NCBI GenBank assembly: GCA_964436855.1
Contig: CAYTED010000004.1
Span: 67,627 to 131,626, forward strand
Length of the DNA stretch: 64,000 nucleotides
Origin: an uncultured Bdellovibrionales bacterium
Lineage (GTDB): Bacteria; Patescibacteriota; Minisyncoccia; Moranbacterales; UBA1568
Reading direction: 5' to 3'
The first letter of the stretch is position 1, and each line of letters opens with the position of its first letter. The notes under the pieces were generated by a model that saw nothing but the letters and a program-made list of their open reading frames with translations, searched no databases and had not been told where the DNA came from. Position numbers and translations under genes: made by a program. Below are positions 3,894-63,998 of this stretch, in pieces.

Positions 3894-3909
3894 CTCCGCC
3901 AACTGGCGG
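3894..3909. promoter_or_regulatory. Perfect palindrome TCCGCCA-AC-TGGCGGA upstream of rpmG; near-identical copy at 19662-19677
   Basis: 7-bp inverted half-sites with a 2-nt spacer. The second copy has one mismatch (TGGCAGA) and lies about 70 nt upstream of the VirD4-like gene. Confidence 0.4.
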
Positions 3910-4049
3910 ATCTTCATAGGGCTTCCGCCCTCTGACGCTTCGCTGTCACCCCAAACGGGAAACTTCCGTTTCCCGACCCCTTCCCCGTTCAATCCCATCC
4001 ATCCCCTTTGCTTGGTATTGCCACATTCACTATCCATTTCATTCTTCTG

Positions 4050-4122
4050 AGCCGTTGACCGGGATTGAACCGGTGACCTCGTCATTACCAATGACGTGCT
4101 CTACCAACTGAGCTACAACGGC
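4050..4122 (-). tRNA. tRNA-Thr (anticodon GGT)
   Basis: Manual cloverleaf: acceptor GCCGTTG/CAACGGC, anticodon stem CGTCA/TGACG, loop TTGGTAA, T-arm ACCGG-TTCAATC-CCGGT. Confidence 0.8.
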
Positions 4123-4149
4123 GTATTCAAATAATTCTTCAGTTGATTC

Positions 4150-4374
4150 TTAATAAATCGTCGCTGAACCAGATTTCAAAAATTTCTCTCTCCCAAGGGC
4201 ATCAAATGTATTTCGGTACATTTCACAATAAATAATTCGCCAACTACCCTCTATCTTTTTTGTATAAGCAGACTTCTTGTGATTGTGTTTATGCAACCTT
4301 CTATTGATATCAGTAGTAAATCCACTATACCAACTTTGATTCAATAAATTTTCCAAAATGTAAACGTAATACAT
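4150..4374 (-). CDS. GIY-YIG nuclease superfamily protein (YhbQ/UPF0213-like)
   Basis: YYVYILE...WYSGFTTDINRRLHKHN matches the GIY-YIG core. Small AT-rich gene inserted between tRNA-Tyr and tRNA-Thr. Confidence 0.65.
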   Translation of the reverse strand: MYYVYILENLLNQSWYSGFTTDINRRLHKHNHKKSAYTKKIEGSWRIIYCEMYRNTFDALGREKFLKSGSATIY

Positions 4375-4497
4375 ATCGACTGCGCCGCGTGATCGACGAG
4401 CTTGACTGTTTTTCTTCCCGTAAAATCATCTACGAAAAACGGAGATGATCACGAGACGCTTCAACACCACTCACTAGAAGCTCGTGATTTTACGCGG

Positions 4498-9730: not shown

Positions 9731-9820
9731 TTATTTGCGCTTCTTCGTAGCTTTTCTCTTGGTGGCCTTTTTCTTCGTCACCTTCTTGGTCGACTTCTTG
9801 GCCTTTTTCTTTGCTGCCAT
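9731..9820 (-). CDS. Small lysine-rich basic protein (29 aa, MAAKKKAKKSTKKVTKKKATKRKATKKRK)
   Basis: Not in the ORF track because it is under 60 aa. ATG at 9818-9820 preceded by a strong SD (GGAGGTGA, 6-nt spacer). TAA stop at 9731-9733. Confidence 0.5.
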   Translation of the reverse strand: MAAKKKAKKSTKKVTKKKATKRKATKKRK

Positions 9821-10180
9821 GTCAATCACCTCCTTCCGTTTTATTTTTTGTTCTGCACAGATCGAAATATGTTCGTCGTGCACGCGAGAAAAATTTCTGA
9901 AACGTTCTTCAAAAATTTTTGCGTACTTTCATTATATACCATTTAAAAAAAATGCAAAGCGTTTTTCATATCATGTCAAGAGAAATTTCCTCCGTGTGTC
10001 GAAAAAGAAAAAATTCAAAAAATATTCTTCTCTTTTGTAATGTGAAAAAAAATTCTTTAAAAGAAAAAACTCCTTTAAAAAAATATTTTCATCGCGTGCA
10101 AAAAAAAGAAAGCGATTTCATTTCAAAAAAACAAAAACGAAGAATCATATAACAATGAAAAAATGGCTTATTGTCGATAT

Positions 10181-45872: not shown

Positions 45873-47465
45873 CTACCACGAAAAAAGCTTTGATTCTTTC
45901 CGAATCACCTTCCCGGAACGAGCGCCGGAAAACACCCCCTCGGTAATCGTCGGGACACCATTCACAAGCACCCAATCGACCCCGATCGGATACTGGTACG
46001 GACTTTCTTCGGTTGCGGTATCGGCAATGCGACTTGGATCGAGCACCACTACATCCGCAGCATATCCTTCACGCAAGAATCCGCGATTTTTAATATGGAA
46101 TCTTTCCGCTGGAAATCCGGTCATTTTTCGAATTGCCTCTTCCCAAGACAAAATCTTTTCATCGCGAACATATCGTCCAAGAACGCGCGGAAATGTTCCG
46201 AAGCTTCGAGGATGCACCATTTCCCCGGAAGATTGAGATTGGAGAGAATATCCGGAACCATTTGATGATACAATAGCGAACGGATGCTGTAATCCGTGAC
46301 GAATATTATGCTCGGAAAGAGACTCGATCGATACAATAGCTCGACCGTCACTTGCAAGCAAAAGATCGATAATCACATCTTCCGGGTACTTCTCCTGCGA
46401 TTGCGCGATATCGAGAATGCGTCGACGAGACAGCATTTTGGAAAGCGAAGAGGAAAGAACCGACATCGAAGCGTAATCAATACCGCTCTTTCGCATTTCA
46501 CGCACCACATTGTTTCGCGTGAGTGTATTCTTCAAATGGTTGAGCATTATTTTCCGACCTCCTTCGGTTACCCATTCCGGAAGAAAAGTATAAAGCACCG
46601 ATCCGGTTGTCGTGTACGGATAGATATCAAAACTGATGCGAAGCCCGTCAAGATCCGCGGCCTCGATCATCGAAAGCGCCTCCTCGAATAAATTCCAATG
46701 TTTTCGCCCGACTGCTTTCAAATGCGATATATGAAGCGGCGCTTTCGCTTCTTTCGCGGTTGTTATCGCTTCAACGATTGACGAGAGTAAATCCTCCGAC
46801 TCATTCCGCAGATAGGTAACATAAAGCCCCTCGTATTTTCCAGACACTTCTGCAAGATCAAGAATTTCGCTCGGGGTCGCACTTTTTGCATGGGTATAGC
46901 AAAGCCCGGTCGAAAGCCCGATCGCCCCTTCTTTCATTGATCGTTTTAAAAGATGCTCCATCACCGAAATATCATCCTCTTTTACCATGCGCATCACATC
47001 ATGGAGAACTCCGCGACGAATTGTTCCGTGTCCCACGAGCGTCGCGAAGTTCGTCGAGAGTTTTTTCTTTTCCACCTCCGCAAGAAAATCCTTCATCGAA
47101 AGCCAATTAAAGGTAATTTTTTCCACATCGGTCCACTTCTGAATCGAGCGGATCGCATCTTTGGAAACAAGCGGTGCAAGCGATGACCCGGCATTCCCGC
47201 CAATAAGAGTCGTTATGCCCTGACGAACCATACTTTCAAGATTTGGTTCGCGAAATATTTGCCAATACACGTCCGAATGATTATTCACATCAATAAATCC
47301 GGGAACGACATACTTTCCTTCGGCGTCAATCACTCGCTCCCCTCCTTCATTGCGAAGGTCACCGATTGCAACAATCGCTTCTTCTTTGACGCCAATATCA
47401 GCACGAAACATCGGTTTCCCCGAACCGTCGATTACCGTGCCGTTTTTAATCAGAGTGTCGAACAT
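45873..47465 (-). CDS. Amidohydrolase-family protein (N-acyl-D-amino-acid deacylase-like)
   Basis: LIKNGTVIDGSG N-terminus and metal-dependent amidohydrolase fold. ORF track to 47561. Confidence 0.6.
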   Translation of the reverse strand: MFDTLIKNGTVIDGSGKPMFRADIGVKEEAIVAIGDLRNEGGERVIDAEGKYVVPGFIDVNNHSDVYWQIFREPNLESMVRQGITTLIGGNAGSSLAPLVSKDAIRSIQKWTDVEKITFNWLSMKDFLAEVEKKKLSTNFATLVGHGTIRRGVLHDVMRMVKEDDISVMEHLLKRSMKEGAIGLSTGLCYTHAKSATPSEILDLAEVSGKYEGLYVTYLRNESEDLLSSIVEAITTAKEAKAPLHISHLKAVGRKHWNLFEEALSMIEAADLDGLRISFDIYPYTTTGSVLYTFLPEWVTEGGRKIMLNHLKNTLTRNNVVREMRKSGIDYASMSVLSSSLSKMLSRRRILDIAQSQEKYPEDVIIDLLLASDGRAIVSIESLSEHNIRHGLQHPFAIVSSNGSGYSLQSQSSGEMVHPRSFGTFPRVLGRYVRDEKILSWEEAIRKMTGFPAERFHIKNRGFLREGYAADVVVLDPSRIADTATEESPYQYPIGVDWVLVNGVPTITEGVFSGARSGKVIRKESKLFSW

Positions 47466-47509
47466 TGAGAAGAAGATAACAAATAATAGAAAATGCCAAT
47501 CAAAATCAT

Positions 47510-48511
47510 TTACTTTGTAACGAGAGCGGCCATCTCCACAAGACGATTCGAATACCCCCATTCATTATCGTACCACGCAATCACCTTCACAAAATCCCCA
47601 TCAATCACCTTTGTCAACGAAAGATCAACGATACTCGATCGCGGATCGCCAATAAAATCCGAGGAAACAAGCGGCTCTTTCGTTACTCCAAGTACGCCAT
47701 GGTAACTCGGATCTTTCGATGCCTCCGTCAACGCAGCATTCACTTCTTCAGCCGTTGTTTTTTTCTTCAAAAGAAAGGTGAAGTCCGTCACCGAAACAAC
47801 AATCGTGGGCACCCGAAGCGAAAGCCCATCAAACAACCCTTGAAGCGACGGCATCACTTCGGTAACAGCAATCGCTGCGCCGGTCGTCGTCGGAACAATA
47901 TTCTGCGCCGCCGCGCGGGCACGACGCATATCTTTATGTGGACCATCTTGCAGATTCTGATCCTGCGTATACGAATGTATTGTTGTCATCATCGCCTTTG
48001 CGATACCAAACTTCGACTCAAGCACTCGCGCCACCGGTGCAAGACAATTGGTCGTACACGATGCGTTAGAAACAACCACTTCATCCTCATACGCCCGATC
48101 ATTCACGCCAACAAGGTATGTCTTTACATCATCGCCCCCGCCTTTTGCAGGAGCCGAAAGCACAACTTTCTTTGCACCGGATTGCAAATGCTTCGCAGCG
48201 GAATCTTTTTCTACGAATCGGCCCGTGCATTCAAGCACCACATCAACATCAAGCACGGCCCATGGAAGCTTGGTTGGATCCGGTTCCGAAAACACCGGGA
48301 TACGCTTCTCGTCGACAACAAGGGCGTCGTTTTCGACAGAAACACTCCGGCGATACGCTCCATACGCGGTATCGTGAAGAAGAAGATGCGCAAGCGTTTT
48401 CGCATCCGTCAGATCATTTATTCCAACAATTTCCATATCATCTCGCTCAAGCGCGATTTTTAATGCTGCACGACCGATGCGACCAAATCCATTTATAGCT
48501 ACTCGAATCAT
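47510..48511 (-). CDS. gap: Glyceraldehyde-3-phosphate dehydrogenase
   Basis: INGFGRIGR NAD-binding motif and catalytic SCTTNCLAP. Confidence 0.9.
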   Translation of the reverse strand: MIRVAINGFGRIGRAALKIALERDDMEIVGINDLTDAKTLAHLLLHDTAYGAYRRSVSVENDALVVDEKRIPVFSEPDPTKLPWAVLDVDVVLECTGRFVEKDSAAKHLQSGAKKVVLSAPAKGGGDDVKTYLVGVNDRAYEDEVVVSNASCTTNCLAPVARVLESKFGIAKAMMTTIHSYTQDQNLQDGPHKDMRRARAAAQNIVPTTTGAAIAVTEVMPSLQGLFDGLSLRVPTIVVSVTDFTFLLKKKTTAEEVNAALTEASKDPSYHGVLGVTKEPLVSSDFIGDPRSSIVDLSLTKVIDGDFVKVIAWYDNEWGYSNRLVEMAALVTK

Positions 48512-60743: not shown

Positions 60744-62189
60744 ATGTTTTCCTTTTTCCAAGCCCATCGGAAGCTCTTTTTGTTTGGTATTCTTTTCCTC
60801 GGCATCGGTATCGCACTCGCCTTTTTCGTCCCATCGTATACGAAAACCCACAAGACCGAAATCGCCCGAACCGGATCGACCATACTGAAAAATATCTCAA
60901 AACTTCTCCCGCTTGAGCCGGATACCAAAAAAGAAATTGAGGTAATCGATAGTATCGTCTCCAAACTCACCGAAAAAAATGGAAAGACTTGGGTGATTTT
61001 TATTCTCCTGCAAAATAACTACGAACTCCGTCCCGGTGGTGGCTTCCTCGGACAATACGCAGTCCTAAAGGTAAAAGACGGTGAAGTGGTTTCACTTACA
61101 GTCGAAGACGCAAACCTTCTCGATCAACGCATCAAAAACGCCGATATCAAAGTTACTCCCCCGTGGCCACTGACGCGGTATATGCAGATCAAGCGCTGGA
61201 TGCTTCGTGATTCAAATTTTTCACCGGATTTTCCATTCAATGCCGGAAAAGCGGAATACTTTTATCGCCTCGGTGGCGGTCGTGAGAAATTCGATGCGGT
61301 CGTCGCAGTCAATGCAACCGTCTTCGATCATATGCTCGGACTCACCGGACCGATTCAGGTTCCGGGATACACGGGAACCTACTCAAGTGATGGCGGCGCA
61401 CTCAAACTCGAAGAAGCGGTCGAAAAATCCTACCTCGGAGACGATGTCGCCGCCGAGCTCAAAGAAAACCGAAAGAATGTGATGAAAAGACTCGCGGGTA
61501 TTATGATCGACAAACTCGCAACAGTCGAAAATATTCCGAAAGTCGTTGAACTCGGCCTCTCGGAACTCCGAGAAAAAAACGTGATGCTTTTTTTCAAAGA
61601 CGAATCCCTGCAAAACGCTGTCAAAAACGTCTACTGGGATGGCTCGGTCACAACGGATTGGAAGAAAGACTACGTAATGGTTGTTGATGCAAACTTGGGC
61701 GCTCTCAAATCCGACTATTATGTAAAGCGATCTCTCGAATATGTCGCCGATTTCACCGGTGAAAAACCAAAAGCAACCGTTACCTATACCTACGATCACA
61801 CCGCCTCCTACGGCGACTGGCGCACAAGCGACTATCACACCTATACTCGCATCCTCGCACCAACTGGATCGAAATATATCGACCAATCTCGCCTTCACAC
61901 CGGAGGTGTCATTGCGCAAGACTCTACCGATCTCGGAAAGACTGTGTTTGGGTACAAGGTTGACGCTCTTATTGGACAGACCCTGCCAACGGCGATTAGT
62001 TACGAACTTCCTGAATCCATCACGTCAGAAAACTACGAACTTCTCATTCAAAAACAATCCGGGATCGGAAACATTCCCGTAAAAGTAACGCTCAAAACAA
62101 ATAAAGGCGAGTTCACGCACGAAGACACCCTGAAAAAAGACCTTCGCATCACCTTCGCAGAAAATCAGACCGAAGAGACAACAAATTAA
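60744..62189 (+). CDS. DUF4012 domain protein (membrane-anchored)
   Basis: N-terminal TM and ELRPGGGFLGQYA (the DUF4012 hallmark). Confidence 0.6.
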   Translation: MFSFFQAHRKLFLFGILFLGIGIALAFFVPSYTKTHKTEIARTGSTILKNISKLLPLEPDTKKEIEVIDSIVSKLTEKNGKTWVIFILLQNNYELRPGGGFLGQYAVLKVKDGEVVSLTVEDANLLDQRIKNADIKVTPPWPLTRYMQIKRWMLRDSNFSPDFPFNAGKAEYFYRLGGGREKFDAVVAVNATVFDHMLGLTGPIQVPGYTGTYSSDGGALKLEEAVEKSYLGDDVAAELKENRKNVMKRLAGIMIDKLATVENIPKVVELGLSELREKNVMLFFKDESLQNAVKNVYWDGSVTTDWKKDYVMVVDANLGALKSDYYVKRSLEYVADFTGEKPKATVTYTYDHTASYGDWRTSDYHTYTRILAPTGSKYIDQSRLHTGGVIAQDSTDLGKTVFGYKVDALIGQTLPTAISYELPESITSENYELLIQKQSGIGNIPVKVTLKTNKGEFTHEDTLKKDLRITFAENQTEETTN

Positions 62190-62265
62190 AACAAGTCTAA
62201 AAAAATCAAAGCCCCCGGGTCGTTACCGAGGGCCGTAAGGCGCTTGATGTTTTGGCAACAAGCGA

Positions 62266-62442
62266 TTAGTGGAACTCGCGACGTGTGCCGCATCGCCGAC
62301 AGGCGATAGAGTAGCAGTCGCAGCGATCCGTTCTTTTGTGTTCACAGGTTCGATGACCGCGAACACGACAGTAGCAAACAATCATGAAGTGTAGAGCGTC
62401 TTGTGTTTTTTGGGACAGTCCCAATCCCAATACTACAGCCAT
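62266..62442 (-). CDS. Cys-rich small protein or peptide (58 aa, 8 Cys) with a consensus SD
   Basis: ATG at 62440-62442 preceded by GAAGGAGGTGTGTG. Sequence MAVVLGLGLSQKTQDALHFMIVCYCRVRGHRTCEHKRTDRCDCYSIACRRCGTRREFH. ORF track 62266..62496. TTGCAT-18-TATATT promoter-like upstream. Hairpin plus T-tract downstream. Confidence 0.5.
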   Translation of the reverse strand: MAVVLGLGLSQKTQDALHFMIVCYCRVRGHRTCEHKRTDRCDCYSIACRRCGTRREFH

Positions 62443-62671
62443 CACACACCTCCTTCTTCTTTGTTGGTGACTGGTTGATAAGGAATATACACCCAAACAG
62501 GAAAAGGATGCAAAACAACTTATCCACCGATTTCAAATATTCGGCTTTTTTCATTTTTGACTATCAAAAAAACGTCTCGTCATCATTCACGAAGGACTCC
62601 TCGGCTCTCTTCCAAAAGTTATCACTCACGCTCCCAAGATAATACAAGCAAAAAAAAATAGCCCCGATTCA

Positions 62672-62700
62672 TTTGCAAAAAATTGGCAACTGTTGTATAA
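62672..62700 (+). promoter_or_regulatory. Sigma-70-like promoter TTGCAA-17-TATAAA for the 62798 gene
   Basis: tttgcaaaaaattggcaactgttgtataaa read in the sequence. Confidence 0.4.
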
Positions 62701-62797
62701 AAATGGAAACGAACAACAGAGTCTGTTTTTCGTTTGGGGAGGATTCGACAGCGATCGAATCCATGGAGAAAATTGTATCGCAAAAGGAGGTTGCACC

Positions 62798-63136
62798 ATG
62801 TCACTTGCTGTTGGAATAAGCGCTGGTGAAAAGCTTGGAATTAAGTTTCTTCCGAACTGCGTCTTGGGAGACGATGCTGACATTCCACCACCGCCAGACA
62901 CCGAAGCGGAGCAGCAAAGAACAATGAAAAAGCTCCAGCACGAGCATCAAACCAGAAGTCATGTAGCAGGCAAAGCGCTTCTCGCGGGAGTAAAAATCTC
63001 TCGAATGCCGAACAGTGAGACGCTCTCCCGAGCAGAAACTCGGGATTACAGTGTCCGGGGATGCAAACGAGGATTTGGTGGATGTTTTTCCGCGCGAGGA
63101 AGCAAAAATCCGCGCCACTTCCACACCGAAGAATAA
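62798..63136 (+). CDS. Hypothetical protein (112 aa)
   Basis: ATG at 62798 with SD AAGGAGG (8-nt spacer). The ORF-track extension to 62693 runs through the promoter. No recognisable domain. Confidence 0.45.
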   Translation: MSLAVGISAGEKLGIKFLPNCVLGDDADIPPPPDTEAEQQRTMKKLQHEHQTRSHVAGKALLAGVKISRMPNSETLSRAETRDYSVRGCKRGFGGCFSARGSKNPRHFHTEE

Positions 63137-63179
63137 CCACTCCTCCGCCCAAGGAAACCCGACCACTCGGCCGGGTTTT

Positions 63180-63503
63180 TCATTTTCCCAAAATAAAATC
63201 CTGCGACGAACGTTTCAAGAGAGAAAGAAACTCTTCAAAATTATCCTCCGAAGAAAGATCATTGATTTTCTCATATCCACACCGCACACATCGATGCGTC
63301 ACTCGTCGACGACGACGCTCTTCCTTCGCCAAGACAGGCTCCATCATTCCCCCGCACCGAGCCAAACGATCTCCCGGAAAAAGATCGACATGCTTGCTCC
63401 ACAGACACTTCGGGCAATGATTGGTATACCCATTCCCCTTCACCGAGCACCCACATCGCTCACAAGAAAAATCTTCAATTTTCTTTGAAAACATTTTTGC
63501 CAT
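63180..63503 (-). CDS. RNHCP-domain protein (Cys-rich zinc-ribbon-like)
   Basis: CERCGCSVKGNGYTNHCPKCLWSKHVD...CVRCGYEK matches the RNHCP domain pattern. Confidence 0.55.
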   Translation of the reverse strand: MAKMFSKKIEDFSCERCGCSVKGNGYTNHCPKCLWSKHVDLFPGDRLARCGGMMEPVLAKEERRRRRVTHRCVRCGYEKINDLSSEDNFEEFLSLLKRSSQDFILGK

Positions 63504-63575: not shown

Positions 63576-63998
63576 ATGATATTCTACAGCCGCTACCATA
63601 TTTACCGAATAATCACCTGGGCATTTTTTATCCATTCGTGGGGAGAAAGGGTAACCTTGATGCACATGAATGGAGCCCTCGTGGTGAAAGTAAATGTGGT
63701 AGCCATCAGGTTACCTTTTTTCATTTCTCCAAAATATGCGTTTTTTAAGAAAAACTCTCGGCTTGGCATATCTTTTGTTTGCAATATTACTTGCTATCCC
63801 GATACTGAGCATCTCTTATCTTTACTCACTATGGCAAAAGATAAAGCAGGAGAAATAATTTCCTGGAGTTTTTTCGTACTCGGTTCGATAATTTTTATTA
63901 TCATCGATCTCAAACCCTCAAACGAAAAAAAAGATTTACAAAATTACTGGTTCAAAAAAGGATACAATCAGTGCAGACTGGACAACAAGCTCTATTAA
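63576..63998 (+). CDS. Hypothetical protein, possibly shorter (membrane segment near the C-terminus)
   Basis: ORF-track ORF only. AT-rich, no supporting motif. Confidence 0.2.
   Translation: MIFYSRYHIYRIITWAFFIHSWGERVTLMHMNGALVVKVNVVAIRLPFFISPKYAFFKKNSRLGISFVCNITCYPDTEHLLSLLTMAKDKAGEIISWSFFVLGSIIFIIIDLKPSNEKKDLQNYWFKKGYNQCRLDNKLY

Follow-up and report, generated by a model that had tools for sequence, protein, structure and literature searches.

A candidate cysteine-knuckle micro-protein gene, overlooked by annotation, beside the scar of a lost thrS gene in a Candidatus Moraniibacteriota genome

The 64-kb stretch of contig CAYTED010000004.1 analysed here (hereafter the window) carries on its minus strand, at positions 62266..62442, an open reading frame (ORF) of 58 amino acids, MAVVLGLGLSQKTQDALHFMIVCYCRVRGHRTCEHKRTDRCDCYSIACRRCGTRREFH, which we call pep58. 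We lean towards reading pep58 as a real, unannotated, single-gene unit whose product is a small, basic, probably zinc-binding protein organised around cysteine knuckles. As judged from sequence comparison, the gene is restricted to one sub-lineage of Candidatus Moraniibacteriota with two known genomes and is fast-evolving; it is probably a very young, lineage-restricted small protein gene. Two lines of evidence carry this reading: the strongest ribosome-binding site of the window, and a similarity to a single close relative that is confined to one reading frame. The original prediction had placed pep58 in a functional divergent pair with a plus-strand gene of 112 amino acids (p112, 62798..63136) beside a gene for an RNHCP-domain protein. 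Both ORFs and the RNHCP gene are where they were predicted to be, whereas the pair itself turns out to be an accident of the loss of thrS, the gene for threonyl-tRNA synthetase, from between its members.

The signals around pep58 are largely as predicted. Its Shine-Dalgarno (SD) sequence, AAGGAGGTG (62447..62455, minus strand), ends 4 nucleotides (nt) upstream of the ATG (62442-62440) and, at 9 nt, is the longest match to the anti-SD sequence in the window, where 28 of 59 long ORFs lack an SD-core match of at least 4 nt and only seven have one of at least 6 nt. The 8-nt match of p112 is the joint second longest. The motif AAGGAGGT occurs five times in the window (1.6 expected), on all five occasions with an ATG 6-10 nt downstream; bare AGGAGG is unspecific, with 41 occurrences and only 10 of them in front of an ORF of at least 50 amino acids. 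Among window ORFs of 30-100 amino acids, pep58 alone combines six or more cysteines with an SD-like motif. Promoter-like hexamers can be read from the sequence further upstream (62484..62513, minus strand), with a putative -35 element TTGCAT at 62508-62513, a spacer of 18 nt and a putative -10 element TATATT at 62484-62489; they are not among the five promoter-like sites returned by a consensus scan. Downstream lies an intrinsic terminator (62200..62234, minus strand) composed of a hairpin at 62210-62234 (nine pairs, seven of them G-C) and a T run, with the tail TTGATTTTTT. The same hairpin also sits just past the stop of the convergent DUF4012 gene (60744..62189, plus strand). If pep58 is discounted, 62190-62797 becomes a gap of 608 nt, where the median is 76 nt and no gap outside the tRNA cluster is larger. 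Two parts of the earlier description went too far. That the peptide is strongly expressed was a deduction from these signals and not an observation, and the region called unusually GC-rich has a GC content of 54.3% (62200-62350), only the 90th percentile of 150-nt windows (mean 47%, standard deviation 5.9).

The predicted protein contains seven cysteines (12% of its residues), not the eight first counted, together with four histidines and nine arginines, and has an isoelectric point (pI) of 9.2 and a net charge of about +6. The succession CxC, CxH, CxC, CxxC is present as C23xC25, C33xH35, C41xC43 and C48xxC51G52, with G29H30 between the first two, and eight possible metal ligands are reached only when His35 is added to the seven cysteines. 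The core formed by the conserved CxC and CxxCG would make one Cys4 metal site, most probably for zinc, and the additional CxH and CxC of the window copy could provide a second (TQDALHFMIVCYCR is a candidate pep58-derived peptide). We propose that a promoter of its own would drive pep58, that its perfect SD sequence would allow efficient translation, that transcription would end at the hairpin it shares with DUF4012, and that the product would bind zinc. Because this product is rich in arginine and carries a net positive charge, it may be a binder of nucleic acid or of a partner protein and neither an enzyme nor a secreted protein.

The second known genome is represented by a 4.5-kb Logan contig (L015), which encodes the second member of the 90% cluster of the DUF4012 protein. 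The two DUF4012 genes are 92% identical in amino acids and 83% in nucleotides, with a synonymous divergence (dS) of 1.08, a ratio of nonsynonymous to synonymous divergence (dN/dS) of 0.04 and a proportion of synonymous differences (pS) of 0.57. At a dS of about 1.08, unconstrained DNA is expected to be only about 43% identical, and anything that can still be aligned is therefore constrained. DNA homology spans DUF4012 into the terminator hairpin and stops there. The relative shows the order DUF4012, hairpin terminator, a 447-nt spacer, thrS, a promoter with leader, a 141-amino-acid plus-strand ORF and a second terminator. From the hairpin terminator into the 447-nt spacer the elements of pep58 recur in the same order and with similar spacing: the terminator (1563-1588, conserved and called on both strands), a stop codon (TAA at 1613-1611, minus strand), an SD sequence at the matching place (GGGAGGT, 6 nt before an ATG) and a -10-like element (ATG to stop 170 nt, compared with 177 nt in the window). 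The promoter-like hexamers read TTGAAT/TATACA, and GGG(A/T)GTATA aligns with the window.

The minus-strand frame that ends at this TAA reads ...FLYFFCLCVGHKQIERKTPGNYRIRCDRCGKEKTFS* and aligns with pep58 with a score of 60, against 28 +/- 5.6 for composition-preserving shuffles (z 5.65, none of 1000 as good). In an all-against-all comparison of 18 frame pairs, this pair alone rises above z 2.4 (z 7.25, 0 of 500), and the alignment of the same region at the DNA level is not significant (z 1.1). Identity between the two proteins is about 31%, compared with 92% for the adjacent DUF4012. What has been kept is CxC..GH..YxIxCxRCGxxxxF, in which C23xC25 and C48xxC51 appear as CLC ... CDRCG, so that the four ligands of the two knuckles are conserved between pep58 and its counterpart. 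Twelve residues are conserved in two aligned blocks (C, C, V, G, H, Y, I, C, R, C, G and F), and half of them differ solely at a synonymous third position (TGT/TGC, GTT/GTC, GGT/GGA, CGA/CGG, GGC/GGA and TTC/TTT), a rate that matches the saturated pS of DUF4012. The pair of Cys4 knuckles thus appears to be the feature under selection, and the balance favours a protein-coding micro-gene. The metal-binding half of the original suggestion, a metal-binding mini-protein or the precursor of a ribosomally synthesized and post-translationally modified peptide (RiPP), is in line with these knuckles, which are conserved in one frame only and whose metal binding is predicted; its RiPP half finds neither a maturase within 20 kb nor a matching family.

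Several observations weigh against this reading. The ATG of the L015 copy is out of frame with the conserved C-terminal part; a one-base change in one or the other of two T7 runs would make the frame continuous, and the copy is either a recent pseudogene or the product of a homopolymer error. The N-terminal third of pep58 is not significantly similar to it, and C33, H35, C41 and C43 are not conserved. The codon log-odds of pep58 (-0.37) fall under those of all real 58-codon fragments and of 99% of shadow ORFs, and its synonymous-only codon score lies under 98% of real fragments. Neither the NCBI nor the Logan gene caller predicted it. On the question of translation, then, the strongest SD sequence of the window and frame-specific conservation stand against atypical codons and the missing gene call. 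A phmmer search of 1.84 billion representative proteins retrieved no relative, its single match being a repetitive, junk-like protein, and scanning JGI metagenome contigs and IMG/VR with back-translated patterns gave nothing. The gene is absent from every relative with a DUF4012 identity of at most 71% (below, the more distant relatives). Lack of conservation in relatives had been named beforehand as evidence against the ORF; it holds for all of these genomes and not for L015. The AlphaFold2 single-sequence model is of low confidence, with a predicted local distance difference test (pLDDT) score of 52 and a predicted template modelling (pTM) score of 0.18. Finally, only two sequences are available, which makes a proper dN/dS or covariation test impossible.

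Other searches agree with the picture of an orphan. The exact sequence is missing from a collection of 15 billion proteins in which the NCBI annotation of this 132-kb contig is represented, and a word-indexed search of 5.8 billion proteins returned nothing. No family match was obtained in Pfam, NCBIfam, PHROGs, PADLOC or the PDB sequences (at E values up to 1-10 for Pfam, NCBIfam and PHROGs). A hidden Markov model (HMM) of pep58 and the L015 copy found no further member in six-frame segments of 17 related loci, and when further L015-lineage members were sought through clusters, these proved to be singletons. The AlphaFold2 single-sequence models of pep58 and of p112 were too poor for a fold search.

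An unlikely explanation is that pep58 is a leftover without function: an ORF, either young or decaying, in a stretch eroding after thrS was lost, with signals and L015 similarity that stem from recently inactivated or never-functional sequence. The surrounding slot is indeed decaying and holds a thrS relic, and the frameshift of the relative's copy, the low identity between the two proteins, the atypical codons and the orphan status would all fit. Against this, neutral sequence at the dS of the two genomes should be unalignable, while start, stop, SD sequence, terminator and knuckles are kept in register with synonymous changes at the knuckle residues, and the window copy is intact and the same in three independent assemblies. 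We give still less credence to the minus-strand unit being a structured non-coding RNA of about 270 nt, from promoter to terminator, in which the ORF is incidental and the cysteine and arginine codons arise from GC-rich palindromes. The predicted transcript (62195-62480, minus strand) folds at z -3.14 and its ORF part alone at z -2.73, with none of 200 shuffles as good for either; the L015 counterpart folds at z -2.13 (7 of 200), and a hairpin lies at the same place in both genomes (ATCGCC/GGCGAT in the window, CCGAT/ATCGG in L015) despite differing amino acids. Codon usage and the failure of gene callers to find the ORF are also consistent with an RNA. However, the two genomes place this hairpin in different registers, and their predicted architectures differ overall. 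No Rfam family was found for the transcript at gathering or permissive thresholds: the former recovered only tRNAs in the window, and the best permissive matches in 62100-63250 (E 0.86-9) cover only the terminator hairpin at about 63150-63185. Translation is also favoured by a perfect SD sequence just upstream of the start codon, in a genome where each AAGGAGGT has an ATG after it, by the restriction of the similarity to one reading frame and by the synonymous third-position changes at conserved residues. The fold of the ORF (z -2.7) and the hairpin at the Cys48 codon, present in both genomes in shifted register, nevertheless count against a purely protein-coding role and make an RNA-level constraint, and with it a dual role, possible.

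Rather improbable, too, is a micro-gene born de novo in the spacer between DUF4012 and thrS, with its Cys4 knuckle already selected, the strongest ribosome-binding site of the region and a transcript that is perhaps both structured RNA and messenger RNA. In the more distant relatives this spacer measures 21-360 nt, in several cases too short for pep58, and contains no homologue. The last alternative, a RiPP or bacteriocin precursor with its maturase encoded elsewhere, strikes us as very hard to credit. Its sole support is small size and a cysteine-rich C-terminal half preceded by a less conserved N-terminal part. The genes between 41.6 kb and the end of the window, and the next one past it, have housekeeping roles or are hypothetical; they include no maturase (radical-SAM, YcaO, lanthipeptide or other), no transporter and no immunity gene, and DUF4012 and thrS are the only genes next to the L015 copy. 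The RiPP and bacteriocin families of Pfam, NCBIfam and PHROGs do not match pep58, which has no signal or leader cleavage motif and is strongly basic and arginine-rich, and the lack of conservation of the middle cysteine pairs in L015 argues in the same direction. The cysteine-knuckle protein stays our preferred reading of pep58.

The comparison with L015 also explains how pep58 and p112 came to lie head to head. In the relative their counterparts are 2.1 kb apart with thrS between them, and in the window a relic of thrS survives at 62563..62626 (plus strand); it translates as SKKRLVIIHEGLLGSLPKVI where the L015 threonyl-tRNA synthetase (ThrRS) reads SKKRPVMIHKALLGSIERFL, and 37 of 45 nt are identical to L015 3305-3349 (E 1.7e-7). 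This relic was revealed only by the comparison with L015. Together with the p112 promoter and leader and the terminator, it forms a series of collinear L015 pieces in the window. thrS follows DUF4012 in L015 and in all 14 other relatives examined, and no intact thrS is found in the whole 64-kb window; being present in all 15 relatives, the gene must have been relocated or replaced. The head-to-head arrangement arose because the intervening thrS decayed or was lost, and the two genes therefore form no functional module: what looked like a divergent pair came about by accident, as the scar left by thrS loss, with RNHCP as an incidental neighbour. The more distant relatives carry thrS between DUF4012 and RNHCP, some of them with a thermonuclease-like gene and a P-type ATPase gene as well, and RNHCP is syntenic in relatives that lack both pep58 and p112; no sequence resembling either gene was found in the more distant relatives at the protein or DNA level. 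When the slot was searched with tblastn and a ThrRS HMM for remains of the thrS, nuclease or P-type ATPase genes that distant relatives carry, nothing was returned. The thrS locus is variable across the group, and three related loci (L005, L007 and L008) carry a short ThrRS of about 420 amino acids, without the N-terminal part, 3' of DUF4012 instead of the form of about 580 amino acids.

The other member of the presumed pair, p112 (62798..63136, plus strand), was called by both NCBI and Logan. It encodes 112 amino acids with a pI of 9.2, predicted to be mostly disordered, and the signals claimed for it are both present. A promoter read from the sequence occupies 62673..62701 (TTGCAA at 62673-62678, 17 nt, TATAAA at 62696-62701), and the SD sequence AAGGAGGT (62784..62791) ends 6 nt before the ATG at 62798. 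The promoter is conserved in L015 as TTGCCT ... CAACTGTGGTATAAAAA, and the promoter and leader region (62687-62763) is 78% identical over 82 nt (E 2.7e-11) despite the high dS between the two genomes. The 5' leader (62708..62762, plus strand; L015 3822-3885) is predicted to form two hairpins, P1 at 62708-62734 and P2 at 62741-62762, with 18 pairs, two of which show compensatory changes and one an A-U/G-U exchange. A covariance model of this leader (R1) found it in the window and L015 only, with no further copies and no Rfam family; it could be a lineage-specific regulatory leader. A terminator hairpin with a T run follows the gene (63156..63185, plus strand), abutting the stop of the convergent RNHCP gene, and is 85.7% identical over 35 nt to L015 (63155-63186 against 4342-4375).

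The product of p112 is less well preserved. Judged by codon score, its frame ranks first among the six, and on synonymous codons alone it stands at the 25th percentile of real genes. With the 141-amino-acid ORF of L015 it shares weak in-frame similarity (best frame pair z 2.8-2.9, 12 of 1000 shuffles), in recognisable pieces such as GDDADIPPPPD/GDGIDDPFPEE and RGCKRGFGGC/GGKRALRGCC. Nothing was found for p112 in Pfam, NCBIfam, PHROGs, PADLOC or the PDB sequences, and among 5.8 billion proteins only p112 itself was recovered; the AlphaFold2 model has a pLDDT of 47.7. The gene seems best described as independent, lineage-restricted and rapidly evolving, with a regulatory region that is better conserved than its product. 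At L015 3781-4356 the Logan caller annotated a minus-strand ORF of 191 amino acids rich in alanine, valine and arginine. Conservation of promoter, leader and terminator indicates that the real gene there is the plus-strand ORF of 141 amino acids (3898-4323), which ends in the cysteine-rich tail NCCADCC.

The neighbouring genes assign the window to Candidatus Moraniibacteriota, a group of the Candidate Phyla Radiation (CPR). DUF4012 orthologues at 62-69% identity occur in 11 metagenome-assembled genomes of Candidatus Moraniibacteriota, and there are many more at 71% or below. The order of genes is peptidyl-tRNA hydrolase, an LTD/PKD protein, tRNA-Gly, DUF4012, the 1-kb slot studied here, the RNHCP gene (63180..63503, minus strand; PF12647, E 1.5e-25, as predicted) and a hypothetical ORF of 140 amino acids. 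A Pfam scan of 41.6-64.6 kb identified GAPDH, GalT, GT2, HIT, HisRS, signal peptidase, LytR, Pth, LTD/PKD, DUF4012, RNHCP, MurD-like, amidohydrolase, GDH and thioredoxin-reductase-like proteins as well as hypotheticals. No flanking repeats that would point to a mobile element were found at the slot, the 64-kb window holds no repeated copies or paralogues, a blastn search of the slot against phages and plasmids gave no match, and a literature search on RNHCP turned up nothing relevant. One Logan contig (L001) is identical to the window over 3.4 kb, and another (L002) differs over 2.6 kb solely at 62693 (T>C), in the spacer just 5' of the p112 -10 element; the same strain thus recurs in at least two sequencing runs. 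Two hypothetical proteins have no Pfam match, namely the one of 140 amino acids (63576-63998, plus strand), which has no counterpart in related loci, and one of 183 amino acids encoded by the next gene past the window (L001 3445-3996, minus strand). The window end that holds these two genes appears to be a strain-specific patch.

Two other sites in the window came to light through the same SD motif. At 9731-9835 (minus strand), AAGGAGGT followed by 8 nt and an ATG starts a lysine-rich ORF of 29 amino acids, MAAKKKAKKSTKKVTKKKATKRKATKKRK, probably another unannotated small basic protein; an ORF of 101 amino acids antisense to it (9735..10040, plus strand) looks spurious. At 46546-46564 (minus strand), a perfect AAGGAGGT with an ATG lies within an amidohydrolase ORF of 562 amino acids (45873..47561) and could mark an internal start or two genes merged in the ORF listing.

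If our reading of pep58 is correct, it adds one more unannotated small protein to a CPR genome and indicates that standard gene callers and catalogues of 15 billion proteins overlook such genes entirely. Ribosome-binding-site strength combined with frame-specific conservation in a single close relative would offer a route to their recognition. The picture of the locus is corrected as well, from a divergent pair to a thrS-loss scar. The wider impact is modest, given a gene limited to two known genomes and a functional lead that consists of the metal knuckles only.

Among known small proteins, those of the RNHCP family (PF12647) are, like pep58, small, cysteine-rich and basic, with an RCxRCG-type knuckle in both, and a 28-nt stretch of the window RNHCP gene is 82% identical to the knuckle region of the L015 peptide (E 0.046). 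Unlike them, pep58 lacks the YTNHCP motif, and the Pfam model does not match it at E values up to 1. That pep58 might be a truncated RNHCP paralogue was considered and rejected, as hhalign of the pep58 pair against nine RNHCP proteins gave a probability of 4.7% over nine columns. RiPP precursors share with pep58 a short length and a cysteine-rich C-terminal half, and differ from it in their context of maturase, transporter or immunity genes and in family membership. Bacterial metallothioneins of the SmtA/BmtA type resemble pep58 in their length of about 55 amino acids, their CxC motifs and the presence of histidine among the possible ligands. The cysteine content of pep58 is much lower, however, the protein is strongly arginine-rich, only four of its cysteines are conserved in L015, and the metallothionein profiles of Pfam and NCBIfam did not match it at E values up to 1-10.

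A further comparison is with prokaryotic one-domain zinc-finger micro-proteins, such as Brz of Halobacterium salinarum (PMC2253796), and with the small proteins of Haloferax volcanii catalogued by ribosome profiling and mass spectrometry (PMC10117724). In contrast to the zinc-finger micro-proteins, pep58 has no homology to any family, and its first knuckle is CxC and not CPxCG or CxxC; its host is a CPR bacterium, whereas Brz and the Haloferax proteins are archaeal. The zinc-finger character of pep58 is a prediction, and the likeness would be functional, not homologous. It extends to size (about 55-70 amino acids), basic character, a stand-alone gene in a region annotated as intergenic, cysteine knuckles as the main conserved feature, and a kind of gene that gene callers often miss.

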